DNA of 64,000 bases from Hahella sp. CCB-MM4. Lineage in GTDB: Bacteria > Pseudomonadota > Gammaproteobacteria > Pseudomonadales > Oleiphilaceae. The notes below the pieces were generated by a model, which saw nothing but the letters and a program-made list of their open reading frames with translations, searched no databases and had not been told where the DNA came from. The stretch's first letter is position 1, and every line of letters starts with the position of its first letter. Positions 7,384 through 64,000 of the stretch are shown piece by piece. The stretch covers positions 117,395 to 181,394 of the forward strand of contig NZ_MRYI01000012.1 of the NCBI RefSeq assembly GCF_002260525.1. Reading direction: 5' to 3'. The position numbers and the translations under genes were made by a program.

Positions 7384-7525
7384 CTCTGCATATTTACCTG
7401 TCTATTTCTCTTTCTATCCATATTCCGTCACACCTCACTTAATCTCTCCACTCATTATCCAATTTCCTACTATTCACCATTCAAATTCCTACTATTCTTC
7501 ACCCAAAATCCTACTACTCTTAAAG
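7384..7525. repeat. degenerate tandem direct repeats (units ~18 bp, e.g. AATTTCCTACTATTC / AAATTCCTACTATTCTTC / AAATCCTACTACTCTT) just 3' of hisF
   Basis: read directly from the sequence. Confidence 0.7.
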
Positions 7526-7639
7526 TATTGCCGCTTAGACTTGAATAGGGGCTGGCAATAATCGTAGCCGTTGATGTAGATGGCTGGTGGAGCTAATAGA
7601 GCAAGTGGCAGGTGAATTGGTGATGCTGGTGACACTGTC

Positions 7640-8128
7640 ATGTTAAAAGTAACGCCGGGCGAAGACGAAGCCTGTGCTCGTATCGTGCTAACGCCGAATA
7701 ATTCGGCTGGGTGGCGAGGAAACCGGGTGTTTCTGATGTTGGCTGGGGGCGTTACCGCAATTGTCGCGACCATGTCATTGCTGGTGGGGGCTGCGTTGGT
7801 GGTCTTCTTTTGCGGTGCGGAGATAACGCTCCTGTTTATTGCCTTGCGCTATGTAAGCCGTCAGTGCGCATCGCAGGAAGTGGTGCAGCTGAGCCCCTAT
7901 GAAGTCCTGATTCAGCGAGGCGTCAAAGCACCGGAGCAGCAATGGTCCTTTCCCAGACTCCATACCCGAATACTGATAGAAACTGATGATTCAAAAAGCC
8001 AGCAGATAAGCGTTCAGTGTCAGGATGTTTCTGTTCCGATAGGTCGATTTTTAAATGAGCGGGAACGCCAGCAACTCATTTCCAACCTTAAAGGGTTGGT
8101 TTCTCATTATCGGCATCTTTATCTTTGA
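7640..8128 (+). CDS. DUF2244-like integral membrane protein
   Basis: two TM helices and 162 aa; resembles the COG5488/DUF2244 family. Confidence 0.5.
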   Translation: MLKVTPGEDEACARIVLTPNNSAGWRGNRVFLMLAGGVTAIVATMSLLVGAALVVFFCGAEITLLFIALRYVSRQCASQEVVQLSPYEVLIQRGVKAPEQQWSFPRLHTRILIETDDSKSQQISVQCQDVSVPIGRFLNERERQQLISNLKGLVSHYRHLYL

Positions 8129-8951
8129 TGTGATTGGTTGATACGGCTATCAGACGGGCGCCGGAGTCCTTGTCGTCGGAATCAAACATGGCCACGGCAT
8201 TATGGCGCATCGCCCAGAGACCCTTAACCGTAGCGATAGCAACACCTTCCTGGCCGAGGAGGGGGATCGCTCTTTCAAGGTACTCAATGGTTTCTTTATG
8301 AGGATGTCCAATAGCGATGGCAGAGCCTTTTTTCTTGGCAATGGAGAGCAGGCGTTTGAACTGAAAGTCGATGGCCTCTGTAGTGATCTCGTGATCCAGG
8401 AATACGTCCCGGCCCAGAGACGGAATGGCATTTTCGACGGCGACATCATAGGCCACTGACATGGCGGTCGTTCGACTGTCAACAAAATACAACGGATATG
8501 AACTAAGCTCCCGCATCAGCAGGCCCATGGCCTGGCGATTCTGCGTCAATGCGCTGCCCATGTGGTTGTTCATGCCGCTGACATAGGGGATTGAGCGCAA
8601 TGCGCGACGAAAGGTGATGACCATTTGCAGGCTTCCCATGTCACTGGTCAGACCTGACGCCCCCAACGGCAGGCTCTTGGTGTTTTCCATGGGGGCATGA
8701 AGCATGATTTCTTTGCCGCTGGCATGGGCGAGGCGTGCCTGATCTTCCGTATAGGGGCGAAAAGGTAAAAAGGCGAGAGTCAGAGGTGCAGGGATATTAA
8801 TCGCCCGTTGCCCCATTTCCCTATAGTTGCCCATGTCATCAATGATGATGGCAATCGTTGGAGGAGGGCGATCCTCTTCGATCGCTGCGGCTGAAGTGTG
8901 GGCCGCCACAAGGAGGAGGCCCATGCCGCCGAGGATGGATCGCCAGCTCAA
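8088..8951 (-). CDS. yibQ: divergent polysaccharide deacetylase family protein YibQ
   Basis: IAIIIDDMGN...LTLAFLPF...MLHAPME motifs of the YibQ family; signal peptide; envC-yibQ synteny. Confidence 0.85.
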   Translation of the reverse strand: MSWRSILGGMGLLLVAAHTSAAAIEEDRPPPTIAIIIDDMGNYREMGQRAINIPAPLTLAFLPFRPYTEDQARLAHASGKEIMLHAPMENTKSLPLGASGLTSDMGSLQMVITFRRALRSIPYVSGMNNHMGSALTQNRQAMGLLMRELSSYPLYFVDSRTTAMSVAYDVAVENAIPSLGRDVFLDHEITTEAIDFQFKRLLSIAKKKGSAIAIGHPHKETIEYLERAIPLLGQEGVAIATVKGLWAMRHNAVAMFDSDDKDSGARLIAVSTNHIKDKDADNEKPTL

Positions 8952-8957
8952 ACGTGC

Positions 8958-10355
8958 TTATCCCTTTGCAGTATTCTGAGGTTTGATAATGCTCAGCCCT
9001 TTGAGCAGGTTGAGTGCTTCCCGAAGTTGAAAGTCTTTGGCGATGATTTCTTTCGTCGCGGGATTTTCTGCGCCTTCAGACTTTGATTCATCGCTGTTAC
9101 CGTTAAGCAGGTGCCCGGAAAGGTCAGCTTCCTTAAACACGGGTTGTGATTCCATTTCGGTGATCGTTGCGCGTTGAACCTTGATGTCCGGAACGATACC
9201 CAGTGCCTGGATAGATCGGCCGCTTGGAGTGTAGTAGCGCGCGGTGGTCAGCTTCAGGCCATACTCTTCGTCCAGAGGAAGAACGGTCTGCACGCTACCT
9301 TTGCCGAAACTTTCGGTACCGAGAATAACGGCTCTGTGATGATCCTGCAGCGCACCGGCGACGATCTCTGACGCAGAAGCGGAGCCGCCGTTTACCAACA
9401 CAACCACCGGGGCGCCATCAATTTTGTCCCCGGGAGTGGCGGTAAAGCGTAGTTTGGAACTTTTGATGCGTCCGTCGGTGTACACAATCAGTCCATCGTC
9501 CAGCAGGGCATCAGATACTTCCACCGCTGCCTGGAGAACACCTCCGGGGTTGTTTCGGAGGTCGAGTATGACACCTTTGAGTCCGTCAGGACTATCCTCC
9601 TTCAGCTTATCCAACGCTTTAGCGAACTCAGAGCCGGTCTGAGCCTGGAATTGGGTGATTCGTACATAACCATAACCCGGCTCCAACGTCATATTCTTTA
9701 CACTGGTAACCCGGATGATGTCGCGCAGGACTTCTATGTCTGTGGGGCCGTCAGAGTTCCGCTTGACCACGGTCAGTTTGATCGGTGTTCCTGGCTTGCC
9801 GCGCATTTTGTTTACGGCTTCTTCCAGTGACATACCTTTGACTGACTGGTCATCGAGCTTGATGATCAAGTCTCCGGCTTCAATGCCGGCTTTTTGGGCT
9901 GGAGTATCGTCAATTGGCGCGATTACTTTAATGAATCCGTCTTCCATGCCGACTTCTATGCCCAAACCGCCGAATTCGCCAGTGGTGGATTCCTGCAGGT
10001 CATCAAAAGCGCTGGGTTCCAGATATGAGGAGTGGGGGTCCAGGCCCGAGAGCATTCCGCGGATCGCATTGTTCAGGAGGGTGGTGTCGTCCACGTCTTC
10101 CACGTAGGCTTTTTTAATACGATCGAAGACTTCTGCAAATTTACGTAGATCATCCAGTGGGAGTTGTGCTGACGGGGCCTGATCCGCTTGTTTCATGCCG
10201 TCAGTTTGACCGGTATCGGTTGTGTCCGCAGGTTCATCTGCCCACACTCCAAAAGGCAAAGCCAAGGCCAGTACAGCGCCTGCGATTGTAAGTCTTTTCA
10301 CTCTAGACACCACTCTATCGTTGTATTCCTGCTGCATCGCGTTTACGCGAAACAT
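8958..10355 (-). CDS. ctpA: S41 family carboxy-terminal processing protease (CtpA/Prc-like)
   Basis: PDZ domain plus S41 catalytic region (GGSASASEI..., ...K); N-terminal signal peptide. Confidence 0.85.
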   Translation of the reverse strand: MFRVNAMQQEYNDRVVSRVKRLTIAGAVLALALPFGVWADEPADTTDTGQTDGMKQADQAPSAQLPLDDLRKFAEVFDRIKKAYVEDVDDTTLLNNAIRGMLSGLDPHSSYLEPSAFDDLQESTTGEFGGLGIEVGMEDGFIKVIAPIDDTPAQKAGIEAGDLIIKLDDQSVKGMSLEEAVNKMRGKPGTPIKLTVVKRNSDGPTDIEVLRDIIRVTSVKNMTLEPGYGYVRITQFQAQTGSEFAKALDKLKEDSPDGLKGVILDLRNNPGGVLQAAVEVSDALLDDGLIVYTDGRIKSSKLRFTATPGDKIDGAPVVVLVNGGSASASEIVAGALQDHHRAVILGTESFGKGSVQTVLPLDEEYGLKLTTARYYTPSGRSIQALGIVPDIKVQRATITEMESQPVFKEADLSGHLLNGNSDESKSEGAENPATKEIIAKDFQLREALNLLKGLSIIKPQNTAKG

Positions 10356-11676: not shown

Positions 11677-11706
11677 CCACTTTCCCTGAGGAGCCAGGGA
11701 AAGTGG
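11677..11706 (-). terminator. perfect 12-bp stem / 6-nt loop hairpin downstream of gpmI (CCACTTTCCCTG-aggagc-CAGGGAAAGTGG)
   Basis: read from the sequence; only a weak U-tract follows. Confidence 0.4.
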
Positions 11707-14854: not shown

Positions 14855-14892
14855 GAGGGCGGTTCTGTCCAGGATCGCCCTTTCTATTTTTC
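14855..14892 (+). terminator. putative intrinsic terminator after secB (GAGGGCG...CGCCC stem followed by a TTTCTATTTTT tract)
   Basis: hairpin plus T-rich tract, read from the sequence. Confidence 0.4.
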
Positions 14893-14965
14893 CATTACCC
14901 TATTTTCCACTATCCAATTTTTCCGCGTTTCTATTCAGCGCGATTCTATTTCACTTCTATATATA
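14881..14965. repeat. degenerate short tandem repeats (TTCTATTT-type units) 3' of secB
   Basis: read from the sequence. Confidence 0.55.
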
Positions 14966-15111: not shown

Positions 15112-15369
15112 ATGGAAAATTTAAGCCCGGTAACGATTGGGATTATTGTTGTGGCTGTGATTCTGGTACTTGTTGCGATCAAATCACGTGGCAAGGAAGG
15201 GGGAACAATTAATAGCATACCGGTTCCGCCGGCGGATCAGGCGACGGATGAAGACATCCGTAAACTGGCCGGGTCCGGTAAGAAAATTCAGGCTATTAAG
15301 TTGTATCGCGAGAAATATGGCGTGGGCCTGAAGGAAGCGAAGGAGGCTGTTGAGGCTCTAGTGGAATAA
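15112..15369 (+). CDS. small membrane-anchored protein with a ribosomal L7/L12 C-terminal-like domain
   Basis: N-terminal TM helix; KIQAIKLYREKYGVGLKEAKEAVEAL resembles the L7/L12 CTD [26 protein letters not shown]. Confidence 0.55.
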   Translation: MENLSPVTIGIIVVAVILVLVAIKSRGKEGGTINSIPVPPADQATDEDIRKLAGSGKKIQAIKLYREKYGVGLKEAKEAVEALVE

Positions 15370-18630: not shown

Positions 18631-20532
18631 TTGAATATGTGTTGTGGTACCCGTCAATCTAGACTGAGCCTTGCCTTCACGGTCGGTATGATGGGCTTGT
18701 GTACAGGCCTTTTTCCCTATACGGCATTCGCCGAAGAGCTATCTGTTAATCGTCAGGGGGCCAGTAACCAGGGGGTCAATAGCCAGGATGCCAATAGCCT
18801 GGACCAAAGTGGCCAAGATCAATTTAGCCTGGAGCAAGATAGCCAAGTCCAAAATAATAATAACCAAGGCGCAAATCGCCAAAGCCAGGACAACCTTGAG
18901 CCCTCTGCACAGGAAGGCAATGAGTGTGTGGAGGCCACGGCCAATCCTGCCAACCTGGATCTCGATAATCTGGAAAACGGCGTCGGTTCATTCCCGGAAG
19001 TCCCAGAAGGGGCTGTCATTCGCAACATTGAAATCTATCCTCAGGATATTTATCACGACTATGGTGAGGAAGAAAATCTTCGGTGGTATGAGCGCACAGT
19101 CAATGCTTTGCATCCGGTCACTTTCGAATCCGCCATAAAGTCTCAGCTGCTTTTTTCCCGCGGCGACACTTACGACAAAGATTTGATCGATGAATCGGAG
19201 CGTAGTCTTCGGCGCAGTTCTTATCTCTACAATGCTCAGATCGTAGCCTCCCGTGTATGTGGCAATGTTGTCGACCTTGCTGTAGTTACCCGTGATCTCT
19301 GGACGCTGTTGCCCACCGTTGGACTTTCCCGCTCAGGTGGACAAAACCGCACCATTTTGGGGTTGAGCGATCAGAACTTTTTCGGCACCGGTAAAAAAGT
19401 ATCCTTTAGCCGTGAAGAAGAGGAGGGCAAGGTGGAATACAGCGTTGACTACTTTGATCCCAATCTCTTTGGGAGTCGCTGGCAAGCAGGTTTCCAGCTT
19501 GCAGACAGTGATGATGGCGAGCGGCAGAGTGGTCAGGTCGGGTATCCGTTTTATCGCGCAGGGGCCCCCTGGTCATTTAAAGCTGCAGGCTTTCACGAGA
19601 TCAGGAACGACGAGCGATTCTTCCGGGATGAGAGCATTAATGAGTTTCAACACAACATCGAGCTGTACGATGTCAGTTATGGTCTGTCCACATTCTTTGA
19701 TGGCAGCCGGGAAGAGAGGCTGTATTTTGGGGCGGCGGTAGAAAACCACCAGTTTAGTGTGGTGCCTGAAACCACAGGAGAAATTCCTGCCGACCGTAAG
19801 CTGAGATATCCATGGGTTGGGTATGAGTGGCGAGATAATGAATATCTAAAGGCATTTAATATCAGCCAGATTCAACAGGTGGAAGATATTTCGCTGGGAT
19901 GGCGAAATGCTGTCAACCTGGGGTGGTCGGATCGATCGTTTGGAGCAACATCAGATCAATTGGTGGTGAAAGGTGAAAGTCGCTACCGGCATGGTGACAC
20001 TTTCCATTTAGGGACACTGGCATTGAAGGGTGAAGGCTACTGGGACTTTGATGACAAAACCAGTGAAAATGCAACGTTAACCCTGGCGGGTGATTTCACT
20101 CAGTTGAATGATGAGCGTGACCGAGCCTGGTTTACCTCACTCACTTTCAACTACGTTCATAACCTCACTCTGGATAACCAGTTGTTATTGGGGGGCAGTA
20201 GCGGATTAAGAGGTTACCCCTCTAATTATCAGACTGGTTCCCATAGTTTTCTGTTTTCCGCGGAACGGCGTTTCTTTTGGGATTGGTATCCGCTGAAGAC
20301 ATTTCATGTTGCGGGTGTGACCTTCTTTGATGCGGGGCGGGCCTGGTTTCCCGGCCGGGATAACGGGGTGAATGGAAAGGTCTTAAAGGATGTGGGGGTT
20401 GGTATTCGGGTGACATCCAGCAGGATCAGGGTAACCCGGGTGTTGCATATGGATCTGGCATTTCCTTTGGACCGGGATGACGATGATATAGATAAGATGC
20501 AATTAGTGTTAAGGGGGCAGCAGACATTCTAG
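18631..20532 (+). CDS. Omp85-superfamily outer-membrane beta-barrel protein (surface antigen D15-type) with an N-terminal Q/N/S-rich low-complexity region
   Basis: signal peptide; C-terminal Phe; LRGY, a VRG(F/Y)-like loop-6 motif; alternating beta-strand pattern in the C-terminal ~300 aa. Confidence 0.5.
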   Translation: MNMCCGTRQSRLSLAFTVGMMGLCTGLFPYTAFAEELSVNRQGASNQGVNSQDANSLDQSGQDQFSLEQDSQVQNNNNQGANRQSQDNLEPSAQEGNECVEATANPANLDLDNLENGVGSFPEVPEGAVIRNIEIYPQDIYHDYGEEENLRWYERTVNALHPVTFESAIKSQLLFSRGDTYDKDLIDESERSLRRSSYLYNAQIVASRVCGNVVDLAVVTRDLWTLLPTVGLSRSGGQNRTILGLSDQNFFGTGKKVSFSREEEEGKVEYSVDYFDPNLFGSRWQAGFQLADSDDGERQSGQVGYPFYRAGAPWSFKAAGFHEIRNDERFFRDESINEFQHNIELYDVSYGLSTFFDGSREERLYFGAAVENHQFSVVPETTGEIPADRKLRYPWVGYEWRDNEYLKAFNISQIQQVEDISLGWRNAVNLGWSDRSFGATSDQLVVKGESRYRHGDTFHLGTLALKGEGYWDFDDKTSENATLTLAGDFTQLNDERDRAWFTSLTFNYVHNLTLDNQLLLGGSSGLRGYPSNYQTGSHSFLFSAERRFFWDWYPLKTFHVAGVTFFDAGRAWFPGRDNGVNGKVLKDVGVGIRVTSSRIRVTRVLHMDLAFPLDRDDDDIDKMQLVLRGQQTF

Positions 20533-21546: not shown

Positions 21547-23184
21547 GTGTTGGACTATTTCAGAAAAATAAGTATCACCAACCGATTCAATCTGATCTTC
21601 GGCCTTGTCATTGTCAGCATGCTGATCATGATCTGGATGGCGAGATTGAATACGGCTGATACGCTCATGGCTGGAAAACAGCATACCACCCGAAGTGTGA
21701 TAGACACTTCGATCAGTATTATTGAATACTTCTACGCCAAGTCCCAGGAAGGAGCCCTGTCAGAAGAGGATGCTAAAAAGCAGGCTCTGGAAGCAATCAA
21801 AGCGATTCGCTATGCAGGAGAGGAATATGTCTGGATCAATGATTATCAACATGTGGTGCTCATGCATCCGATCAAGCCGGCACTGGATGGCAAAAATCTT
21901 TATGATCTGAAAGACCCGAATGGCGTTCAGATATTTCGTGAATTTGTGAAAGTGGTGAAGAAAGACGGGGCAGGCTATGTCGCCTATGACTGGCCGAAGC
22001 CGGGACATGAGGATCCGGTTCCGAAAATCAGTTATGTCAAAGGGTTTGCGCCTTGGCAGTGGATTGCAGGAACGGGAGTATATGTTGACGACGTCAATGC
22101 CGAACTGAATGCCCAGACATTTGGGCTGATGAAAACCATGGGGTCAGTTTTATTGGTATTAGTGGCTGTCATGGTGGTTGTGTTGAGAAGTATTTCTATT
22201 CCTCTGAGGGACACACTGGAAAGAATGCGCGACATCGCTTCGGGTGAGGGGGATTTGACCAAGGAACTCAAAGCGGAGGGTAACGATGAGTTGGCCAGCC
22301 TGTCAGAGCAATTTAATACCTTCATCGAGAAAATCCGTGCCTTGGTGTTGAATGTCGGGGAGTCTATCGGGCAGCTATCGACAGCAGCTGAAACTCTGGG
22401 GAGTGCATCTGAGTCCAGTGCGGAAAGCGTCAAACTCCAACAGGGAGAAACTGATCAGGTCGCCAGTGCAATGAATGAAATGACGGCGTCTGCCGCTGAA
22501 ATTGCGCAAAGCGCAGAGAAGGCTTCCTCCAGTGCCGAAGAGGCGCGGCAGGAATCGGAGAGAGGCCGGCAGGTTGTGACTCGTACCCTTTCCATGGTGG
22601 AAGAGCTGGCAGATGCCATGAGTGCGACGACGGAGACTATTGCGAATCTCAAATCGGAAACACTGAATATCGGGTCTGTACTGACAGTGATCCAGGGAAT
22701 TGCAGAGCAAACCAATCTGTTGGCATTAAATGCTGCAATTGAGGCCGCCAGGGCTGGTGAGCAGGGACGTGGGTTTGCGGTTGTGGCGGATGAAGTCCGG
22801 GCGCTGGCGAGTAAAACCCAGCAGTCGACCGAAGAGATCAATGAGATGATTGCCAAGCTTCAGCAAAGGGCTTCTTCTGCTGTGGAAGCGATGGAGCAAA
22901 GCCAGAATAAAACCAAGTCTTCACTTGAACAGGCCGGAGAGGCGGATCAGATGCTCCAGAGGGTCGCCGAGGCTATTGGCATGATCAATGATATGAGCGC
23001 TCAAATTGCGACCGCCTCAGAAGAGCAAAGCCTGGTGGCGGATGAAATCAACAAAAATGTCTCCAACATCGTCCATTCTACTGAGGATACAGCGAGTTCT
23101 ACCAAGCGGGTTCTGGAATCCAGTCAGGATATTCGGCTGGTGGGGGAAACTCTTCAGCAGCAGGTTGGGCAATTCCGGGTTTGA
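21547..23184 (+). CDS. methyl-accepting chemotaxis protein with a single-Cache-type periplasmic sensor, HAMP and MA domains
   Basis: TM helix, Cache-like region, TM helix, HAMP, then the highly conserved MCP signalling domain ([30 protein letters not shown]). Confidence 0.92.
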
Positions 23185-23256
23185 GTGACAATTTCGGGCT
23201 TGAGTGACAATTCTGGGTTTGATTGACAGTCCCCGGGGATAAGTGACTCCCGGGGT
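23167..23256. repeat. degenerate ~19-bp tandem repeats (TGAGTGACAATTTCGGG-type) overlapping the MCP stop, ending in a CCCCGGGG...CCCGGGG hairpin
   Basis: read from the sequence. Confidence 0.65.
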
Positions 23257-25527: not shown

Positions 25528-28500
25528 TCAATCATGTTTCCTGGTGCGTTTGATTTCCTCTTCCAGATTCTTTAGCTGTCGTGAAATATCCTGCATTTTT
25601 TCCTGGGTTCGCAGATCGATATCAATCTTCTTATCCATGCTATGTACCAACGGATAGAGGCTGTTCTGCCAAGTATCGGCCAGGACCCGCAGGATGTTTT
25701 CCAAGCCGGGAATTGGAGGACTGTTTACTTCCACTTTAGGCTCTACCTTCAGCTTTGGTGTGCTCTTGCTGATGGTTTGCCCCAGGTTGTTAAGGGACTC
25801 AAGCAGTCCGCTCTGGAACTGTTGATTCGCCTGCCGGCTTTCCTGCTCACGTTGCTGTTGGAACTCAGCTGTAGCGGCCCGGTTTTCGGCCACGCTGTGA
25901 TTCAGATGCTGGATACCTTCGACGAGATCGGTCAGCTGGGCAACCACGCGGCCACCTACGTCTGCGTCACTGCCACCCATGGCTTTGTTGCGCAGGAAGT
26001 CCTTCTTGATTTGCTCCCACCGCTGCTGTTCTTCGGACGTCATGTTGCCCCGAAGTGCCGCCAGTTTGAGCAGGTTTTCTTCCGCTCCAGTGGTCAGTAG
26101 CTGGGCCTCACCAAGATAATGGTCGGAGATGAGCTGCATCAATTCATCGTCGTTCATCACCGACGAGACTTTCTCCGCCATCTTGTTCATGTTCCGGTAG
26201 CTGCCCTGCAGCTTGAAGGAAGGCTCGTTTCGATATCGGTCGTCCTGTGCGGCGGAGGCAATATACTGCTGGTTGATCTTGAGAATGACATCCTGGATCA
26301 CAAACAGTTTTTGTAATACGGACTTCATTTCATTCAACTCTGCACCACTGTATTGATGCTTGAGATCTGTCGCGGCAACCGGTTCACCTTTCGCCATGGC
26401 GATGATTTTGTATACATCGTCCATTTCCCTGGTTGCCAGAGGTGCCAATACAGAATTGGAGGTAAGGCTATTCTCGATATAACTCAGGCTGAACTGCTCG
26501 TCCATGCCGCCGAGTATATCGCCCAGGTTGTAGATATCTGCCCGGTTGGCCAGCATGTCGGGGACCTTGAAGGCTTCACCGGACTCCGTATACGGGTTAC
26601 CAGCCATGACCACACAGAACTTGCGTCCGCGCATATCGTAGGTTTTGGTCTTGCCTTTCCAGACCCCCTCTATGCGACGGGTGCCGTCACACAATGAGAT
26701 GAATTTCTGCAGGAATTCCGGGTGCGTATGCTGGATGTCATCCAGGTACAGCATGACATTGTTCCCCATTTCCAGTGCCAGATTGAGCTTTTGCAGCTCC
26801 TGGCGTGCCGTGGCGTTGGGGGCTTGGGCCGGATCCAGGGATAAAACGTCATGGCCGAGGGATGGACAGTTAATCTTCATGAAGATCAACCCAAGCCGGT
26901 TAGCCACATATTCCATCAGGGTGGTTTTACCGTAACCTGGAGGAGAGATCATCATGAGGAGGCCCATCAGGTCGGTTCGTTTGGACTCTCCAACGGTTCC
27001 CATCTGTTTAGCCAGGTTGTCACCGATAATCGGCAGATAAGATTCATTAATCAGGCGGTTGCGGACAAACGAACTCAGCGGACGAGGTTTGAACTCCTCC
27101 AATCGTAGGGCTGAACGTTCCTCTTCAATGATCGTCTGACGAAGGCGCAGATAGTTGTGGTAGCTGGGAACAACTTCCTGCTGATGTCGCTGAAGACGTA
27201 ACATGAATCCGTCCAGGGAGAAACGCAGTGCTTGCTGCTCCATTCCCGGATGATCGCCGAGCAGGCCGCTGACTTCCAGCTCCAGGTCTGTCTGGCTGAG
27301 GCGTCTCTCGATTCTTTGGCCTGCATTCATGAGCGCGACAGCTTCAGGAATATAGTGTTCCAAATGCCCAAGGTTCTTTTTTCCCACCATCGCTGACAGC
27401 CAGGCTTCGCCCAGTTTCCAGCGTTCTGCCACCTGGCCGTGCAGCTGCTCCTGTGCGGTCTGGTAGGTACGCCAGCTTTCTTCATCCAGTGAGCGTTTGA
27501 ACTCCTCTGCAAGATCCTGTGCGTATTTGCTGCTGATAAACTCCAGCCGTTCACGTCCCATTTCTGCCACAAGATAAGAGGCAGCCTGTTGTTGCTCCAG
27601 GTCTGAGAAGGGCAGGGGATAGCATTCCAGGAAACGTTGCAGATGTTCCAGGACTTCCTGTTCAAGGTGCTTGATAGCCCGAGTATCGGCAAAGGTGTTC
27701 TTAAGCAGCTGAGCAGACTGTGCTCTTTGCTGCCAGGTCGCCGCTTTTCCAGTGAGTTCTTCAATATTGCTGCGGCCGGGCAGGGCGGATTGAGTGCCCA
27801 GGGGCTTGATCAGGTTTGCCCAATAAATCTGGGCCAGGCCACGGGATTTTGGATTGAAGATCAATAGATCCGCACTGTCCATGGCCGGCAGTAATTGTTT
27901 CAGAATGAGGGCTGCATCATGATCATGAACACCCTTTTGATAACCCTCTTTGTAACGGGGAGCCGAAAAGGTTCGGATCAGCTTCAGGAGCTCCTCATCA
28001 TCAAGCAATGCCTGATTCAGGGTGTCCATATTAAAGTCATGTTGACCGGAATCTGCTGCCTCTATCAGTTGCATGGCAAGGTATTCCGAACGGTATACTT
28101 CACTGGTTTCGGACTCGAGAGTCATATCCCAGTATGGTTTCAGTGCTAAAAGCTCCGGCCGTTCAATCGATTCGAAGAAGTTGGTCCCGGTAAGGTGAAT
28201 GCTGAGTTTGTCTTCCCGGGGCAAAATGGTCAGGTCAAGTTCCTGGGTGTTCACACTGAATTTGTGTCTTGGCCCCAGCTTGATGACATTGCCACCCGCC
28301 TCGTAAATGTCGGATTTGTCCCGTAGCGAACGGGTGGACTGTTCACGGACAGACTTCAGACGGGATTCAACATCGTCTGCTTTAACATTACTGTCGAGCT
28401 CCCGTAGTTTTTCCACGGATTCACGAACTTTCTGAACCAGGGCATCCGAAGCAAAGAAGGTATTGAGTTCGTCTGCTTCGTTAAACTTCATTGCCCGGCG

Positions 28501-30873: not shown

Positions 30874-30981
30874 ATTGTTTTCCTGTAACCTGTCTTTACT
30901 CGAAAGCTTTTTACGCACCCGCTCACAACTGTTGTCAGCGAATCATCTTTACCCATTGCGATGGTTAAAGGTGGGATTAGG

Positions 30982-36219: not shown

Positions 36220-36565
36220 CAAGTGCTCCTCCCTTTTCTAGTCCTCTGAGTTTAGGTCGCATTCTAGTCCTGAGTCGAATGTGCCACGTAAACCAGGGTA
36301 TATGGTCCAGTTCGGTGGAGAACCATACGAGGTCTGTTAATGAAAGCGATCTTCGGTGTCTGGCTCCTTCAAATAAATAACTATCGCTAAATTGATCGTT
36401 ATATACGGGGGCTATCCATGGTGTGAGTAGATAAACTTAAAGATTGAGGATTGGAGGCTATACTGGTTTTTATCGTGTTGCTTTGTCTTGAGTTGTGGTT
36501 CGAGCGGACTGCACCAAAGACCCAGGTGTAAAACTGAAAGTCATGACGAGAAGGTTGATGTCTTG

Positions 36566-36608
36566 CAGGGTGAGGGGGCTAGGGTGAGAGTGCTAGGGTG
36601 AGAGTACG
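36566..36608. repeat. 3 x 14-bp tandem repeat (AGGGTGAGAGTRCN) overlapping the start of the SBP gene
   Basis: read from the sequence. Confidence 0.6.
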
Positions 36609-37374
36609 AAAGCGTTTTCTGGTCTTGATGATCGCCTTGGTTGTGTCGATGGGCTGTCATAGTCGGGATCTATTGATTGCTGGGCCTCCGTGGCCGCCAT
36701 TTTTAATTCCGGATCATCCTCGGAAAGGGGTGGCCACTGAAATTGTTGTGACCTGTCTGGAGCGTGCGGGATACTCTGCCAAAGTGGTTATCAAGCCGTG
36801 GCCAAGGGTGTTGGCTGAGGCCCGCCGGGGAGATATCGATGCGCTGGTCGGGCTTTGGTATAACCCTGAGCGTGCTGAGCAGTTCTATTACACCAATCCG
36901 TATTATGTTAATGAGATTTACCTGTTTCGATTGCGTGATCATCCTATTCATTATTCAAGCTTGGAAGACCTAGTCGGAATCAGTATCGGGGTAAGACAAA
37001 ATGCCTGGTATGGCGGAGAGTTCGACAAAGCTGATTTTCTGCAGAAAGTGGAATTGAATGAGTTGGTGAGTATATTGAGAATGGTTTCGATCGGTCGTCT
37101 GGATGCGGGGGTCGGGGACCGTCTGATTATTCAGGGGCTTATTGAATCGGAGCCCCAGTTAGGTGATCGCCTGGCATTCAGTGAGCCGGCTGTGTCTTTA
37201 TTGCCGCTACATATGGGGATGAGTCGCAAGCATCCTGATCATCGTGAAATAGTGAGTAGGTTCAATCAGGCATTAAAAGAACTATTGGATGACGGGACGC
37301 TGAGCAATATCTATAAAGACTGGAATATTGTTCAGTCGCCTGAGTTAGCCTCTCAATTTGCCAATAAAAAATAA
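36598..37374 (+). CDS. periplasmic substrate-binding protein, family 3 (amino-acid-type SBP)
   Basis: signal peptide; SBP_bac_3-like pattern (GYSAKVVIKPWPRVL..., DALVG...). Confidence 0.7.
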   Translation: MRVRKRFLVLMIALVVSMGCHSRDLLIAGPPWPPFLIPDHPRKGVATEIVVTCLERAGYSAKVVIKPWPRVLAEARRGDIDALVGLWYNPERAEQFYYTNPYYVNEIYLFRLRDHPIHYSSLEDLVGISIGVRQNAWYGGEFDKADFLQKVELNELVSILRMVSIGRLDAGVGDRLIIQGLIESEPQLGDRLAFSEPAVSLLPLHMGMSRKHPDHREIVSRFNQALKELLDDGTLSNIYKDWNIVQSPELASQFANKK

Positions 37375-45821: not shown

Positions 45822-45896
45822 ATTTCTGCCGCGGCTGATTAATCCTCCTGTGATTAGTTATTTCTCCCGTGGTTAGTTATTTTCCCTGTGATTAAA
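45822..45896. repeat. degenerate ~20-bp tandem repeats (GATTAGTTATTTCTCCCGTG-type) 3' of gcvT
   Basis: read from the sequence. Confidence 0.65.
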
Positions 45897-45916: not shown

Positions 45917-45948
45917 CAGGACGGAAGAATGTTCCGTCCTGTTTTTTC
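45917..45948 (+). terminator. intrinsic terminator: CAGGACGGAA-gaatg-TTCCGTCCTG followed by TTTTTT
   Basis: 10-bp perfect stem plus a U-tract. Confidence 0.8.
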
Positions 45949-46060
45949 GGTGTCTTGCTTCATTAAATCTCGCTTATATGGCGGTCTTCCGCTTGTTCTT
46001 CCTTCTCAAGCCTGTCAGTATGTCTCGCAGTTACATATCAGTTGTTGATGGATTGTCTGG

Positions 46061-47102: not shown

Positions 47103-47450
47103 ATGAAACTCTATATGCTGGTTGACACCATGGACTGGGATGATGTGGATGAATCTATGACAGCTGCCATTACGGAATGGGCAGGTAAGCAGGGAGAGGA
47201 AGTAGAGTTGGTAAACCTGACGGATGATGACACCGGCGAGCGTCATCTGGGAATTAACATCCATGCCAGTAAAGCCGCTCAATTAAGAGAACCTTTGAAC
47301 TTTCTTTATGGACTGGCCAAAAGCCACAAGCTGGAATTTGTCGTCGGAATATATGATCCGGATAGCCGGGCCATGGAGGATATCTGCTATTTTGGTCATG
47401 AAGAAGGCAAACCCGATGCGTTCGAGGTTGCAAACTATTTGTTCATGTGA
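47103..47450 (+). CDS. hypothetical acidic protein
   Basis: 115-aa ORF with no domain assigned. Confidence 0.45.
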   Translation: MKLYMLVDTMDWDDVDESMTAAITEWAGKQGEEVELVNLTDDDTGERHLGINIHASKAAQLREPLNFLYGLAKSHKLEFVVGIYDPDSRAMEDICYFGHEEGKPDAFEVANYLFM

Positions 47451-47503
47451 TGGTTCCTATCTATTTATGTGGTAGTTCTGTCTATTCATGTGACGTTTCT
47501 GTC
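47436..47503. repeat. degenerate ~21-bp tandem repeats (GGTTCCTATCTATTTATGTG-type) overlapping the stop of the 47103..47450 ORF
   Basis: read from the sequence. Confidence 0.6.
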
Positions 47504-47540
47504 GGGCGCGCCGGCCCCGGTAAGTCTGCATAGCGCGTTT

Positions 47541-51923: not shown

Positions 51924-52709
51924 ATGTTGTACAGGCGAATAATGAAAAAAATCATTGGCATAATCTTTTTACTATTTATTACTTTGACCTCGGTAGCTTT
52001 GTTTGCCGGCGCTCTTGTCCTCTGGTTGCTCACCCGCTGGTTTGATCATCGTCTGGTCTATCTGCATCGCTATACCTGCTTCTGGGCATATTTGTATGTC
52101 TGGTCAATGCCGGCCTGGCAGGTGAGTTTTATCGACAGGCATAAAATTAATCCCCGACGCACTTATGTGGTGGTCTCCAATCACCAATCCCTGCTGGATA
52201 TATTGGTCGTTTTCGGGCTGTTCTTTCATTTTAAGTGGGTATCTAAAGCAGAAATTTTCCAGGTGCCGTTGATCGGCTGGAATATGGTCCTCAACCGCTA
52301 TGTCAAATTGAAGCGGGGAGATGCCGAGAGTATCGGACAGATGATGAGTGCTGCGGAGACCCATTTGAAAGGGCAGAGTTCTGTTTATCTGTTCCCTGAA
52401 GGCACTCGGTCATTTGACGGTCGATTGAAGAGCTTCAAGCCCGGAGCGTTTATCCTGGCGAAGAAGCTTGGCCTGCCAATATTGCCGATAGTGATCGAAG
52501 GAACCACTCACGCCCTGCCCAAACACAGTCTTGAGTTTCACGGGCGTCACCCCATCTGCGTAAAGGTGATGGATACAATTGAACCGGAATCCTTTGCCCA
52601 GATGAGTGATACTGAACTGGCTGAATATACCCGTCGGAAATTTGCCGAGGAACTGGCCCGGTTACGTCATACATCGGTGGATCAGGTCGTCGCCCCATGT
52701 AATGGGTAA
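51924..52709 (+). CDS. lysophospholipid acyltransferase (PlsC family)
   Basis: HQSLLD (HX4D) and FPEGTRS motifs; N-terminal TM helix. Confidence 0.85.
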   Translation: MLYRRIMKKIIGIIFLLFITLTSVALFAGALVLWLLTRWFDHRLVYLHRYTCFWAYLYVWSMPAWQVSFIDRHKINPRRTYVVVSNHQSLLDILVVFGLFFHFKWVSKAEIFQVPLIGWNMVLNRYVKLKRGDAESIGQMMSAAETHLKGQSSVYLFPEGTRSFDGRLKSFKPGAFILAKKLGLPILPIVIEGTTHALPKHSLEFHGRHPICVKVMDTIEPESFAQMSDTELAEYTRRKFAEELARLRHTSVDQVVAPCNG

Positions 52710-52787
52710 AAGCCAGTCATTCGGGATCAGTCATCGCTTTATCCAGAATCAGTCGTCGCTTTACCCTGAATCAGTCATCGCTGAGTG
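52681..52787. repeat. degenerate ~22-bp tandem repeats (GAATCAGTCATCGCTTTACCC-type); the first copy lies inside the plsC 3' coding end
   Basis: read from the sequence. Confidence 0.65.
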
Positions 52788-53058
52788 CTACCCGGTCATA
52801 GATTCCCGTGACATTGGAAAAGTGCAGGACCACCGTATGGGCGTAACGCTTTTCTGAATCATGCAGGTGATATTTAAAGCGACTCTGTTTACCGGTTTGA
52901 AGAAACGTATCATAGTCCTTCACCAGCTCCCGGACATCGCTGGTCAGTTCAGTGCTCCAGGTTGCTTTAAACGGCCCCAGGACAGCTCCCCCGTCCAGGC
53001 AAATAGTCACTTCGTGGTTGGTTAGTGCTTTGTGTCCAGTCATAGGCATTTCCCTCAA
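52771..53058 (-). CDS. hypothetical small protein
   Basis: 95-aa ORF with no domain assigned. Confidence 0.4.
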   Translation of the reverse strand: MREMPMTGHKALTNHEVTICLDGGAVLGPFKATWSTELTSDVRELVKDYDTFLQTGKQSRFKYHLHDSEKRYAHTVVLHFSNVTGIYDRVALSDD

Positions 53059-58680: not shown

Positions 58681-58800
58681 AGTATTCCGGTTAAACAAAG
58701 AGTATTCCGATTAAACAAAGAATACACCGGTTAAGCAAAGAGTATAACGGTTAACCAGAGAGTATGATTGTTAATCATAGAGTATAGCTGATAACCATAG
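58681..58800. repeat. six perfectly phased 20-bp direct repeats (consensus AGTATnCCGGTTAAACAAAG) in the divergent intergenic region between the two c-di-GMP genes
   Basis: units at 58681, 58701, 58721, 58741, 58761 and 58781, each with a GTTAA-type core. Confidence 0.8.
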
Positions 58801-58937
58801 TACAACTGGAATGTAAGGCAACTCTGCTTATCGTGAATGCGGCAATTTGTCCTTGAAATCTAGGGGATCTCAACAATACTCAATCCATCGGGAGTCGGAT
58901 TTCGTAGTCTGTTTACAGAATAATATGGAAATTCATC

Positions 58938-61403
58938 ATGCTGTTCAGTAATCGCATTGAAAGTACCCCTCGCATTCTGCTTGTTGACGATGAACCTTCA
59001 AATTTGATGCTGTTGGAGGAAGCGCTCAGTGAACTAGGCTCCATATACTGTGCCCGTAATGGTAGTGAAGCCATTACCATGGCCAAGGAGCTGTCTCCGG
59101 ATATCGTCTTATTGGACATCGACATGCCTGACATGAGCGGATTTGAGGTATGTCAGCAATTAAAGAACGATTCCCGCACCGTTAATATTTCCATTATCTT
59201 TGTCACCTCTTATCAGGGCGATGAGGTTGAAGCGGCTTCTCTCGAAAATGGGGGAGTCGATTTCATCACCAAGCCGGTCAACTTCAATACGTGCCGCCTG
59301 CGAGTCAAAAACCAGTTATTGATACAACAGCATGCCAAGTCACTGAATCAGGCCAAGGAAGAATTGCAGCGGCTGGTGACTCAGGTCCCTGTGCAAATTA
59401 CCTACTGGGGAGCCGATTGGAAGAATCAGTTCAGCAATGATTACAAGGGATCCTGGTTTGGTGTCCCGTCTGCGAAAATGGCCGGAAAGCATATTGCTGA
59501 GGCATTCCCCGAGTCCCTCAGCGAAGTGATTCTCAGCTTTATGCAAAAATCTGATGCCGAGTCAGAACAGTTTCAAGGTTCATACGTCAGAGAAGGGCAA
59601 TCCACAAAGTTTGTTCAAATCAGTGTGTCTAAAAGTATTCAAGACGATGAGGTGATCGGCTATCTGCTGACAATGGTGGATATCACTTCCATCAAGTTGA
59701 CAAAAGCAGCTCTCTACAATGAAAAGGAGCGTCTCAGAATTACGCTTAATTCTATTGGGGACGCCGTGATTGCGACTGACACACAGGGAATTATCACATT
59801 TATCAATCCGATTGCTGAGAGGATGACCGGCTGGCATTCAAGAGATGCGATTGGCAGGCCGGTGGAAGATGTCATGAATCTGATGGATGCGAATACACAT
59901 CAGATCAGCCTGAATCCGATACGGCTGGCTCTTGATGAAGAACGTATCGTTGGAATGGCCATGAATTGTCAGTTGCTCAGCCAGGCGGGGGATTCATATC
60001 GGGTGGAAGATTCTGCGGCGCCGATCCGCGATAGCGACGGCAGTATCACTGGAGCCATCATCGTTTTCCACGATGTCAGTGAAGCGATTGCCATGTCCGT
60101 CAAGATGAGTCATCTGGCGAACCACGATCAACTGACGGACTTACCCAATCGTATCCTGCTGCATGATCGTCTTGAATACGCCTGCAAGTTGGCAAAATAC
60201 ACCAACAAGAAAGTCGCGACTTTTCTCATTGATATTGACCATTTTAAATATATCAACGACACACTCGGCCACTCTATCGGCGATCAGCTGATTAAGCAGG
60301 TTGCCGGCAGAATCAGCAGAATGATTCACGCGAATTGCACGCTGGCGCGGGTGGGGGGCGATGAGTTTCTGTTGTTGGTGCCCAATTTTGAACACCTGGA
60401 AGACGTGCAGACTGTGGCCAGCAATGTGACGGGGGCAATGCACAAGCCGTTCACTTTGGGAGGCCATGAATACAATGTCTCGGTCAGTGTCGGTGTGAGC
60501 GTTTTCCCTGATGATGCGACAGATCAGGAAACCATCATGCGTCACGCTGACGTCGCCATGTATCGCGCCAAGCAGGAAGGGCGCAATCGATACTGCTTTT
60601 TCTCTGATGAGTTGGAACAACAACTCATGGAACGCCATCATCTGGAAATCCAGTTGCGCGAAATTATCGCTAAGAACCGAATAGAGGTCTTTTTCCAATC
60701 GAAGGTAAGACTGTCTGATGGTGCGGTGGTCGGTGTCGAGGCTCTGGCGCGAATGCCGGCGGAAGGTGGAGGATATATTTCCCCTTTGGAATTTATTCCT
60801 CTGGCAGAAGAAACCAAGCTGATTGTTCCTTTGGGGCAACAGATTCTCTTAAAGGCATGCCGTTATGCTGTGCGCTGGAAAGAGATCGGTAAAGAAATAC
60901 CGGTATCTGTGAATGTGGCTTCCGCACAGTTTGCTGAAAGCAACTTTGTTGAAACGGTCGAGAACGCGCTGAAGGAATCGACACTCGCCCCTCATCTTCT
61001 GGAGCTGGAAGTCACCGAAACTGCGTTGATGGATGATACCGAGAAAGCGCAGAGCACTCTGGCAATTCTCAGTGATCGAGGTATAAAAGTGGCGCTGGAT
61101 GACTTTGGAACCGGGTATTCCAGTTTGTCTTACCTGAAGAAATTCAGAATGGATGTTCTGAAGATCGATCAGTCTTTTGTGCGGGACATGCTAACGGATA
61201 ATAACGACTACGATATCGTGAAGACCATTGTCTCTCTGGCCAGTTCGATGGACCTGGAACTGGTTGCCGAAGGCGTTGAGACAGAAGGTCATGTGAAAGC
61301 GCTGATGGCTCTGGGGTGCCCTGTTGGCCAGGGCTACCTGTTCAGCAAACCAATACCGGCGGATGAATTTGAGAAGTATCTTCTGGATACTCCCAATTCC
61401 TAG
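58938..61403 (+). CDS. REC-PAS-GGDEF-EAL protein (c-di-GMP turnover response regulator)
   Basis: REC (LLVDDEPSN...DIVLLD), PAS, GGDEF with a degenerate GGDEF (RVGGDEFLL), EAL (EALAR...DDFGTGYSS). Confidence 0.9.
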   Translation: MLFSNRIESTPRILLVDDEPSNLMLLEEALSELGSIYCARNGSEAITMAKELSPDIVLLDIDMPDMSGFEVCQQLKNDSRTVNISIIFVTSYQGDEVEAASLENGGVDFITKPVNFNTCRLRVKNQLLIQQHAKSLNQAKEELQRLVTQVPVQITYWGADWKNQFSNDYKGSWFGVPSAKMAGKHIAEAFPESLSEVILSFMQKSDAESEQFQGSYVREGQSTKFVQISVSKSIQDDEVIGYLLTMVDITSIKLTKAALYNEKERLRITLNSIGDAVIATDTQGIITFINPIAERMTGWHSRDAIGRPVEDVMNLMDANTHQISLNPIRLALDEERIVGMAMNCQLLSQAGDSYRVEDSAAPIRDSDGSITGAIIVFHDVSEAIAMSVKMSHLANHDQLTDLPNRILLHDRLEYACKLAKYTNKKVATFLIDIDHFKYINDTLGHSIGDQLIKQVAGRISRMIHANCTLARVGGDEFLLLVPNFEHLEDVQTVASNVTGAMHKPFTLGGHEYNVSVSVGVSVFPDDATDQETIMRHADVAMYRAKQEGRNRYCFFSDELEQQLMERHHLEIQLREIIAKNRIEVFFQSKVRLSDGAVVGVEALARMPAEGGGYISPLEFIPLAEETKLIVPLGQQILLKACRYAVRWKEIGKEIPVSVNVASAQFAESNFVETVENALKESTLAPHLLELEVTETALMDDTEKAQSTLAILSDRGIKVALDDFGTGYSSLSYLKKFRMDVLKIDQSFVRDMLTDNNDYDIVKTIVSLASSMDLELVAEGVETEGHVKALMALGCPVGQGYLFSKPIPADEFEKYLLDTPNS

Positions 61404-62074
61404 TGCGAGCCCGCCCTGACCGCTGAAAAACTCTGTATTAAGCGATTCAACTCCCTCATGTCGTCAAACGTTGCCGCGGCACCTGCAGCGATCTGGTGTT
61501 CAGCAATCATATCTGCGCTGTAGGCGAAGACGGTCATTCCGGCGGCGGTCGCTGCTTTGATGCCGGCGGGGGAATCCTCAACCACCGCACACATTGACGC
61601 AGGAACTCCCAGCAGCTCAGCTGTATAAAGGTAAATATCCGGCGCGGGTTTAGGACGTTCAACATCCTCCACACAAACATAATGGTGAAAGTATTGATTG
61701 AGCCCGGTCTGTTCCAGCTTGTACATCAACTCCCTGCGCATTGCGTTAGTGGCGGTTGCTTTCGGCAGGGTGAGGGCGTCCAGGGCTTCCTGGATATAGG
61801 GAATCATCGGCATTCCCTGTGATACCTCTTCCAAAAAACCTTGCCGCAGGTTGTCGTGGAATCCGTCAGGAAGCGGAGCGCCCAAAAGTTTGCTGGCAGT
61901 AACTAGGTTGGCGGCAGTTGTATGACCGGTAAAGTGAAAATGCAGTTCCTGGTCGTCCAGGTGCAGGTCCAACCCGGCCAGCATGCGTTTCCATACCCGG
62001 TTGGCCAGGCGTTCGGTATCAACGAGAACACCATCGCAGTCAAAAATGACAGCTTCAAAAGGATATTGCGACAT
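61400..62074 (-). CDS. HAD family hydrolase (HAD-IA phosphatase)
   Basis: DxD motif FDCDGVLVDTE; C-terminal hhhhDS/GxxD motifs. Confidence 0.8.
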   Translation of the reverse strand: MSQYPFEAVIFDCDGVLVDTERLANRVWKRMLAGLDLHLDDQELHFHFTGHTTAANLVTASKLLGAPLPDGFHDNLRQGFLEEVSQGMPMIPYIQEALDALTLPKATATNAMRRELMYKLEQTGLNQYFHHYVCVEDVERPKPAPDIYLYTAELLGVPASMCAVVEDSPAGIKAATAAGMTVFAYSADMIAEHQIAAGAAATFDDMRELNRLIQSFSAVRAGSH

Positions 62075-62236
62075 GGTGAAACCTTCTCTGGTGAATAGCT
62101 TTCTTTGGTAAACAACTTTCTTTGCTAAACAACTTATCTGGGATAAATTGAAAAGCAGAGGGCCTGATATAGGCTCCGATAAGCAGGCTATTGTACACGG
62201 ACTTGCGTGGGAGTGATGGGGTGTTCGCCTAAAGAG

Positions 62237-62935: not shown

Positions 62936-62971
62936 TTTGTAGAATTGTTAAGACGAAGTCTCTTGCAATCA

Positions 62972-63000
62972 GGGGGCTGAGGAGCCCCCGTATTTTCTTT
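62972..63000. terminator. GC-rich hairpin GGGGGCT-gagg-AGCCCCC followed by GTATTTTCTTTATT on the + strand; lies between two minus-strand genes
   Basis: read from the sequence. Confidence 0.4.
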
Positions 63001-63005
63001 ATTGA

Positions 63006-63848
63006 TTAGCGATCCCCAAAGACGGTCGTCCAGTAGTGGGGGTAGTCAGCTTGCGATGTGCTGATTTTCTCAGCACCGATTTCGGTATAGCCGGATCTCA
63101 TAATGTTGGAACAGTGTCCCGGGCTTTTGAGCCATCCTTCCATCACCTGCTGCACGGACGAATATCCGGCGGCGATATTTTCTCCTACCAGGCGATAGTT
63201 GTAGCCCTGTGCTCGAACACGGTCGCTCACCTGGGAACCATCTGAACCGGTATGACTGAAGAAGTTGTTATCCACCATATCCTGGGTATGCTTGGTCGCA
63301 GCGGCTCCCAATTTACAATTCCAAGTTAAGGCCGGAGCGGCTTCGTAATAGGTTCCGCCACAGCTTCGCCCCTGGCTACGGGCGTTATTATGTGCAGTAA
63401 GCAACTCCTTCTGGACATCGGATAGGGTGCAGTCACCGGGTGGATCTCCGCCATCATCGTCGTCTGTCACATAAGTTGCTTTAAGCTGCATGCCCCCGTA
63501 GTCGTCATAGCCGCGTAGCATGATGTGGTATTTCCCTGCCTTGGGAGGCTTGAAGGTACAGGTTTCCTGGTTGCCCCATTCATAAGGGCGACAATCAAAT
63601 ACGCTGGTATTGGGAGTACGGTTGTAGGCCACATAGAGATCCGCGTCTCCAGAGCCACCTGAAATCTGCACTACCAGACTGATAGATTTATCCGGAACCT
63701 CAATGTAGTAAAACGTTTCGCTTCCTCTGGAGCCGGAAAGATCCTCAAGTGGAACGCCGTTTTCTAATGGAGTATCAGCCTGTGCCTGAAAAGACATGCT
63801 GAGTGAGAGAGTGGTGATGGTCATAAACAGCCATGGATAGTGGTTCAT
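63006..63848 (-). CDS. secreted CAP/SCP/PR1-like domain protein with an N-terminal pre-peptidase C-terminal (PPC) domain
   Basis: signal peptide; PPC-like region (GDADLYV...); CAP motifs HNNARS..., GHCSNIM, HYWTTVFG. Confidence 0.7.
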   Translation of the reverse strand: MNHYPWLFMTITTLSLSMSFQAQADTPLENGVPLEDLSGSRGSETFYYIEVPDKSISLVVQISGGSGDADLYVAYNRTPNTSVFDCRPYEWGNQETCTFKPPKAGKYHIMLRGYDDYGGMQLKATYVTDDDDGGDPPGDCTLSDVQKELLTAHNNARSQGRSCGGTYYEAAPALTWNCKLGAAATKHTQDMVDNNFFSHTGSDGSQVSDRVRAQGYNYRLVGENIAAGYSSVQQVMEGWLKSPGHCSNIMRSGYTEIGAEKISTSQADYPHYWTTVFGDR

Positions 63849-63940
63849 ATGCTAAATCCTTTTTTGCTCGTGACACTCATGTTGGTGGTTTGTAACCACT
63901 CACCATCATTGTAATTCAAATAATAAAAGGATTCGAAAAT

Positions 63941-64000
63941 GACAAAAGTTATCTATTGGAATGGAAAAAGCTATCTATTGGAATGACAAAAGCTATCTAC
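63941..64000. repeat. at least 3 x 22-bp direct repeats (GACAAAAGYTATCTATTGGAAT) upstream of the CAP gene, truncated by the window end
   Basis: read from the sequence. Confidence 0.7.

Follow-up and report, generated by a model that had tools for sequence, protein, structure and literature searches.

What are the short tandem repeats that recur between the genes of Hahella sp. CCB-MM4, and how did they come to be there? The question is raised by a 64,000-nucleotide stretch of contig NZ_MRYI01000012.1 (positions 117,395 to 181,394 of the forward strand; the window, in what follows), in which a preliminary description, made from the letters alone, had listed nine intergenic arrays of direct repeats. 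We found that such arrays occur in real and strong excess, that this excess is confined to non-coding DNA, and that several of the arrays are seeded on the ends of neighboring genes. Most probably, they are locus-specific, minisatellite-type products of near-neutral local tandem duplication in non-coding spacers, a process elevated in the clade to which this strain belongs. We see no evidence of a new functional element; the arrays are a new instance of a known minisatellite-type phenomenon.

Arrays were called with Tandem Repeats Finder (TRF; score at least 50, overlapping calls merged), coding and non-coding DNA were separated by a crude open reading frame (ORF) mask, and 30 dinucleotide-preserving shuffles of the window served as the chance baseline. 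For CCB-MM4, array calling and the comparison of consensus sequences both cover this 64-kb window. TRF recovered all nine of the arrays listed earlier and returned 13 merged arrays in total, compared to a mean of ~0.13 (range 0-2) per shuffle. Non-coding DNA makes up 7.6 kb (12%) of the window and holds 11 of the 13 arrays (1.45 arrays/kb, versus 0.035 arrays/kb in coding DNA), including two that had not been listed, at 2362-2395 (17 bp x 2.0) and 62080-62135 (17 bp x 3.3). We number the non-coding arrays A0 to A10. Their periods range from 14 to 22 bp (20-22 bp in five of 11), their copy numbers from 2 to 6, and their inter-copy matches from 76 to 92%. In the TRF output and in register layouts the copies are head-to-tail, contiguous, and degenerate, with no intervening unique sequence; the wider coordinates of the preliminary description correspond to extra, more degenerate outer copies that are visible by eye in register. 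The two coding repeats are both in frame, with periods that are multiples of 3: one (18754-18796, 15 bp x 2.9) lies in an Omp85-like gene and the other (30748-30794, 21 bp x 2.2) in a 1796-aa ORF (25528-30918, minus strand). The probability that the non-coding arrays are chance matches or assembly artefacts, the latter a concern raised at the outset, is negligible: the shuffles yield almost none, the copies differ from one another in a way that errors of assembly collapse or expansion would not yield, and independent assemblies of related organisms hold the same kind of arrays.

Each array has its own 14-22 bp unit, and the units are unrelated between arrays. Different arrays have nine 9-mers in common, several of them overlapping, which is about the number expected by chance according to a rough estimate, not a permutation test. 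A hidden motif common to the arrays (for example, CTATCTATT or TTCCTACTAT) was considered and rejected by that same estimate, the shared k-mers being few. The dissimilarity between arrays reported in the preliminary description is thus borne out, as is its statement that they are not a dispersed REP/ERIC-type family, because no consensus is common to the 11 arrays of the window. REP/BIME, ERIC, and MITE elements resemble the arrays in being short spacer repeats that often lie near gene 3' ends or terminators, but they form dispersed families with a shared, usually palindromic consensus, whereas the window arrays are direct repeats that share none. CRISPR arrays also consist of repeated units (~20-35 bp) in non-coding DNA; in the window, however, the copies are contiguous without spacers, degenerate rather than constant, and at most six in number, so the exclusion of CRISPR holds as well.

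The closest parallel is with bacterial minisatellites, or variable-number tandem repeats (VNTRs), and close direct repeats (PMC4060949; PMC2884548), which likewise consist of head-to-tail units of at least 10 bp, with a unit of its own at each locus, concentrated in intergenic DNA. These too are attributed to slipped-strand mispairing, and their presence or absence differs between close relatives. The arrays described here differ from them in being unusually dense (11 arrays in 7.6 kb of non-coding DNA) and in that many are visibly seeded on gene stop or start regions; they differ from the VNTRs used for typing in that their copies are old and degenerate (76-92% matches) rather than near-identical. 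Close direct repeats are commonly over-represented in the intergenic DNA of mesophiles (PMC4060949). The accepted source of small variable segments and minisatellites is slippage of replication between short repeats (PMC2884548). A literature search on intergenic repeats of Hahella gave nothing relevant.

The seeding on gene ends is clearest where a stop codon lies inside an array. The preliminary description had proposed that four arrays begin within the last codons of the upstream gene, as if the gene's 3' end were the seed for local duplication, and for two of these the proposal stands. The first copy of A3 (23167-23256, plus strand; TRF 23170-23228, 19 bp x 3.1) is the last four codons and stop of the MCP gene (21547-23184), and the first copy of A6 (47435-47503, plus strand; TRF 22 bp x 2.9), in a convergent spacer, is the last five codons and stop of a 115-aa ORF (47103-47450). 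For gcvT the case is weaker: A5 (45822-45896, plus strand; TRF 45845-45894, 19 bp x 2.6) lies between the gcvT stop and a terminator hairpin at ~45917-45950, and degenerate copies extend to the stop, but the single copy over it matches at 14 of 19 bases by hand alignment. For plsC the assignment is ambiguous. A7 (52726-52787, no strand assigned; TRF 52726-52782, 22 bp x 2.6; listed earlier as 52681-52787) fills a spacer of 61 bp. On one side of it the plsC-like gene ends (stop at 52709), and on the other lies a convergent minus-strand gene for 95 aa (52771-53058) that had been missed; the final copy of the array is the last four codons and stop of this second gene, which is the clearer seed. 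To these is added A0 (2362-2395, no strand assigned; 17 bp x 2.0), in the 47-bp spacer between an Fe(2+)-trafficking gene and mutY (both minus strand; TRF, Pfam), whose final copy takes in the mutY stop codon. Stop-codon regions therefore lie inside A0, A3, A6, and A7.

Other arrays are placed differently. A1 (7384-7525, plus strand; 22-bp units, TRF 7459-7516, 22 bp x 2.6) and A2 (14881-14965, plus strand; 15-bp units, TRF 14884-14924, 15 bp x 2.6) begin directly past terminator-like hairpins, on the sense strand. A1 sits past that of hisF and has three clear copies with more degenerate ones upstream of them, and A2 starts at the T-tract that follows the hairpin (14855-14882) of the intrinsic terminator of secB. 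Translation-initiation regions lie inside or abut two further arrays: A4 (36566-36608, plus strand; TRF 36567-36605, 14 bp x 2.8; G-rich) overlaps the ribosome-binding site (RBS) and putative GTG start of a solute-binding-protein gene (36598-37374), and A10 (62080-62135, minus strand; TRF 17 bp x 3.3) abuts the RBS and start of a HAD hydrolase gene (61400-62074, minus strand), with the unit that contains the Shine-Dalgarno sequence duplicated upstream. A8 (58681-58800, no strand assigned; TRF 58681-58797, 20 bp x 5.5-6) lies in the divergent region between genes for two response regulators, RR-GGDEF and RR-PAS-GGDEF-EAL, and A9 (63938-64000, no strand assigned; TRF 63938-63999, 22 bp x 2.8 or more; A-rich), which is cut by the window end, lies ~90 bp upstream of a CAP/PPC gene (63006-63848, minus strand). 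Array density is 3.2/kb in convergent spacers, 1.35/kb in co-directional spacers, and 0.87/kb in divergent spacers, and in co-directional spacers five of six arrays are closer to the 3' end of the upstream gene (p ~0.11; n = 10 arrays in the spacer test). A preference for 3' ends is thus suggestive but not significant, and the general association with 3' ends proposed earlier is qualified by A4 and A10, which lie on an RBS and start, and by A8, which lies in a divergent promoter region.

Are the arrays conserved? Synteny with most of the window is seen in H. ganghwensis contig AQXX01000119 (loci L081, L091, and L092), and parts of the window have counterparts in two other Hahella-like genomes (L083/L093 and L089/L090). 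These relatives are other species, so what we scored is presence or absence between species; A3 was left out of the comparison. We found that no array among those compared is conserved in the sister genomes (L081, L089, L090, L091, and L092), while neighboring promoter and untranslated region (UTR) blocks are. BLAST alignments to the closest relative (84-86% DNA identity) cover the flanking terminator and promoter blocks but are interrupted exactly at A2, A4, and A5. At A2 the spacer measures 189 bp in the window versus 74 bp in this relative (L090; 115 extra bp), whose secB spacer is short and without an array. The corresponding values at A4, which is unalignable to L089 or L091, are 199 versus 133 bp (66 extra bp), and at A5 they are 101 versus 25 bp in L089 (76 extra bp), with both flanks ~84% identical. 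A1, A7, A8, A9, and A10 are absent from H. ganghwensis, where spacer flanks or adjacent gene ends are conserved and the interior is replaced. For A1, the orthologous spacers (L081 2857-2942 and L083 2974-3090) have conserved flanks and different interiors; in H. ganghwensis just the ends of the post-hisF spacer (CGCGCC... and ...TACTACTCTTAAAG) are conserved. The H. ganghwensis spacer orthologous to that of A7 is unrelated and holds no array, A8 is represented there by its distal unit only, as the inverted repeat GTTAAGC-N3-GCTTAAAC, the A10 unit is single-copy in L092, A9 is absent from L092, and the A6 seed is single-copy, with no array in L091.

Several of these same spacers hold other arrays in other species. 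The end of the 115-aa ORF in L093 carries an 18 bp x 4.0 array with the same seed codons as A6 but a different period (22 in A6), and the post-hisF spacer of L083 has an array of its own (19 bp x 3.1), unrelated to A1. Past secB, L081 has (AGTTCCC) x 13.4, L083 has 23 bp x 2.1, and the metagenomic locus L113 has two arrays, all different from A2. Because arrays are missing in sisters while unrelated arrays occupy the same spacers, we conclude that they are not conserved elements and that permissive or slippage-prone spots give rise to them repeatedly and independently. The absence of conservation also argues against conserved regulatory, terminator, or binding-site roles, and such roles, offered as possible origins in the preliminary description, found little support.

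The same comparisons bear on the idea that small mobile elements, either MITE-like or small dispersed repeats, inserted in the spacers and left the arrays as footprints or as internal repeats of their own. The arrays do look like insertions relative to the closest relative, and some bacterial minisatellites are reported to lie inside MITEs (PMC4596501). Against this, the sequence common to arrays is no more than roughly the chance level, and no terminal inverted repeats were seen on reading the flanks, although no dedicated inverted-repeat search was made. Moreover, the units copy adjacent host gene ends, and thus arose in situ, and the seed is single-copy in sister species for A6, A8, and A10. 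We therefore regard an origin from mobile elements as very improbable.

The internal structure of the arrays is informative about how they grew. Adjacent copies are more alike than non-adjacent copies (0.79 versus 0.71 for A8 and 0.55 versus 0.36 for A1), and copy similarity falls along the array away from the youngest end; this is the pattern that stepwise accretion followed by point-mutation decay would give. Copies within arrays diverge by 8-24%, a value similar in magnitude to the divergence from the closest relative; this fits an origin around or after that split. Among the origins offered earlier, replication slippage or local duplication fits best. In such a scheme, slipped-strand mispairing or short-homology template switching during replication or repair would initially duplicate a 14-22 bp segment, often sequence at the edge of a spacer that includes a stop-codon region or an RBS; copies would then be added stepwise and degraded by point mutation, and this decay would account for their degeneracy. 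Duplications that straddle a stop codon would leave the protein unchanged and survive, whereas those elsewhere in coding DNA would be purged, and the neutrality of the former for the protein may explain why arrays so often start in a gene's last codons. In the clade of H. ganghwensis and CCB-MM4, the balance between the making and removal of duplications would have shifted, such that arrays accumulate and whole spacers turn over between sisters. Thus, from these patterns we infer the slippage mechanism, its near-neutrality, and a lineage-level shift in rate or tolerance.

To place the density of arrays in context, we compared the window with relatives and with two backgrounds: 70 loci from diverse, mostly high-GC proteobacteria, taken from a GcvT contig scan (homologs at most 66% among the matches listed), and 25 secB loci from marine gammaproteobacterial metagenomes, taken from a metagenome SecB protein scan, in which no close relative was found (best match 74%). 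Non-coding density was 1.45 arrays/kb in the CCB-MM4 window, 0.87 in the more distant Hahella-like genome GCA_050289565, ~0.3 in H. ganghwensis, and 0.26 in the H. chejuensis group; for the closest relative, GCA_050289125, it was 0, with 1.2 kb of non-coding DNA at hand. The first background gave 0.09 and the second 0.51 arrays/kb. The window therefore exceeds the first 16-fold (Poisson P for at least 11 arrays 1.6e-10) and the second ~3-fold (P ~0.003 by our own calculation, with 3.9 arrays expected), while its coding density is unremarkable (0.035/kb versus 0.06/kb in the first background). We conclude that the excess is real but is the upper end of a graded trait common to relatives. The lineage-specific signature claimed in the preliminary description is therefore upheld as an elevated density and not as something unique to this strain, since the density is graded across Hahella-like lineages; of the mutational and regulatory readings offered for that signature, the evidence favors the mutational one. 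The gradient is suggestive of a change in how fast arrays form or are removed. Metagenomic contigs add two related observations. Four arrays lie within 16 kb of L113 (SecB 74%), two directly past its secB terminator, and the JGI metagenome contig L134 (SecB 89%) has a perfect non-coding array at 4987-5042 (14 bp x 4.0, unit TTCGAGTCGCCCGG, 100% matches), which is a very young array in another clade member.

Two lineage-bound repeat systems invite comparison. Cyanobacterial short tandemly repeated repetitive (STRR) sequences are intergenic heptamer tandem repeats bound to particular lineages. The TAACTGA repeats of marine Beggiatoaceae, for which a regulatory role has been proposed, are, like the window arrays, lineage-bound intergenic tandem repeats (PMC4679880). 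Both systems, however, reuse a constant heptamer, or a few of them, across hundreds of loci, whereas the 14-22 bp unit differs from one window array to the next. We saw a single heptamer array, the (AGTTCCC) x 13.4 microsatellite after secB in H. ganghwensis, which recalls these systems in form. It occupies the spacer of A2 (L081 10542-10635), is near-perfect (98% matches), and is young.

A8 is the array for which a binding-site reading has most to offer. In general form, this reading holds that the arrays are selected cis-regulatory sets of protein-binding sites (operator- or iteron-like), each for its own regulator, with a spacing of ~20-22 bp that keeps the sites on the same helix face. A8 lies in the divergent promoter region between two cyclic di-GMP response-regulator genes, and it is the only array whose units, six of 20 bp each, have a short palindromic core (for copy 4, GGTTAACC; for copy 5, TGATTnnnAATCA). 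The inverted repeat retained at the orthologous H. ganghwensis site and the period of 20-22 bp in five of 11 arrays are also in keeping with it. As an account of the arrays as a whole it is nevertheless improbable: sister species retain the adjacent promoter and 5'-UTR blocks but none of the arrays compared; most arrays lie past stops or terminators or in convergent spacers, where promoters are unexpected; periods of 14, 15, and 17 bp lose helical phase; and several units merely copy coding 3' ends. Judged from the sequence, binding-site arrays may be a viable reading for A8 alone, and there too the lack of conservation weighs against it. Phased A-tract curvature was set aside on similar grounds, as periods of 14, 15, and 17 bp fall out of helical phase. 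Beside A8, the RR-PAS-GGDEF-EAL gene is preceded by a block (58855-58937; ...ATACTCAATC..CGGGAGTCGGATTTCGTAGTCTGTT.ACAG...) that shows strong conservation with H. ganghwensis (L092 9809-9900, reverse complement); kept while the rest of the spacer was replaced, this block may be a 5'-UTR or operator element. A metagenome DNA scan with the conserved 24-mer that adjoins A8 gave 0 matches.

A1 and A2 raise the alternative of a role in the transcript. Here, unstructured, C-rich, G-poor tracts in 3' UTRs would serve as Rho utilization (rut) or backup termination zones, or as other UTR elements, and duplication would merely renew them. A1 is 3% G, 33% C, and 39% T over 142 nt, with a predicted RNA minimum free energy of 0 kcal/mol (unstructured), and A2 is 6% G; both lie on the sense strand just past terminator-like hairpins, and the post-hisF and post-secB spacers of L081 and L083 are likewise pyrimidine-rich and G-poor, yet unrelated to those of the window in sequence. 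A rut site is expected to be a C-rich, G-poor, unstructured tract of ~80 nt or more on the transcript past the gene; in composition these two arrays are rut-like, and the other arrays are not: G is abundant in A3 and A4, A is abundant in A8 and A9, and A0 is poor in G on the antisense strand. The short, array-free secB spacer of the closest relative is a further difficulty. Since this reading fits at most two or three of the 11 arrays, we consider it unlikely as a general explanation. Structured small RNAs were also considered and rejected, as most arrays fold no better than shuffles and the window scan gave no Rfam 15 family at or above the gathering score for any array. Those that do fold better owe it to short palindromes within the units (A5 and A8) or to a short GC hairpin, CGCG(N7)CGCG, within the region (A2).

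Several points weigh against near-neutral slippage as the whole explanation. Periods fall between 14 and 23 bp, with 19-22 bp the most frequent, and the window has no duplications of 30-100 bp, though TRF would detect them; unbiased slippage does not obviously predict this. That arrays recur in particular spacers could be due to selection, for instance on spacer length or composition, as well as to permissiveness. The palindromic core of A8 is typical of dimeric DNA-binding sites, and the orthologous spacers in other species differ in sequence from A1 and A2 but keep their extremely G-poor, C/T-rich composition. Finally, CCB-MM4 is sampled over 64 kb, and the comparison is between species, as no conspecific genome was found. 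A broader proposal, which we put forward tentatively and hold to be possible rather than likely, is that the clade has a mutational regime of its own, in which tandem duplications of 14-23 bp are made unusually fast or removed unusually slowly, with altered lagging-strand flap processing, altered polymerase slippage, and fork stalling at terminator hairpins as candidate causes. Hot spots would lie just past stops and terminators, and spacers would be continuously rebuilt from copies of gene ends and replaced between sisters. A minority of arrays could then have acquired roles, the G-depleted tracts past hisF and secB as Rho-loading zones, for instance, or A8 as an amplified operator. Defects in flap processing (yeast rad27; Escherichia coli Pol I 5'-nuclease mutants) produce tandem duplications of ~5-100 bp bounded by microhomology; the arrays resemble that signature as short tandem duplications, but nothing links them to a repair defect.

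If the density seen here holds genome-wide, the clade would be a convenient natural system for studying the creation and replacement of spacers by short tandem duplication, and it would help to show how gene 3' and 5' ends are copied into non-coding DNA. Such copying could occasionally remodel C-termini, 5' UTRs, and promoter spacing. The arrays are also candidate VNTR markers for strain typing in Hahella, and they call for caution in annotation where start codons or small ORFs are called within them. The GTG at 36598 is an example: the start of the solute-binding-protein gene is uncertain (36543-36640), as the longest-ORF GTG lies inside A4, the ATG frame upstream of it is closed by a TGA that arose within the array, and the ortholog in the closest relative starts differently (266 versus 258 aa). 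At the other end of a gene, the plsC-like protein is 261 aa in the window versus 252 aa in H. ganghwensis (52680-52709 versus L091 16960-16986). The extra C-terminal codons abut A7, and remodelling of the spacer may have changed the C-terminus.

Some smaller features were noted near the arrays. GC-rich palindromes adjoin the distal ends of A3 (CCCCGGG...CCCGGGG, 23231-23255) and A6 (GGCGCGCC/CCGGCCCCGG, 47505-47520), and these hairpins could be pause sites that promote slippage or simply local terminators. Downstream of secB, an 85-aa ORF (15112-15369, plus strand) encodes a product with a hydrophobic segment at its N-terminus and a weak Ribosomal_L12-like match at its C-terminus; the ORF is conserved in L081, L083, and L090 and absent from the H. 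chejuensis group. The window itself is an ordinary housekeeping segment of the chromosome, containing hisF, secB, yaeQ, the MCP gene, a gcvHP-glyA-sdaA-gcvT cluster, a PBP7-like endopeptidase, the plsC-like acyltransferase, and the cyclic di-GMP response regulators, among others. The SecB that it encodes is 100% identical to SecB of Hahella sp. CCB-MM4. Its GC content is ~50%, and its GC skew is positive over the entire length. The first 2000 nt are AT-richer (43% GC versus ~50% in the rest) and hold a tRNA gene (1654-1726, minus strand), which is the sole match of the Rfam 15 scan of the window, together with low-scoring small repeats at 92-110 and 1563-1586.

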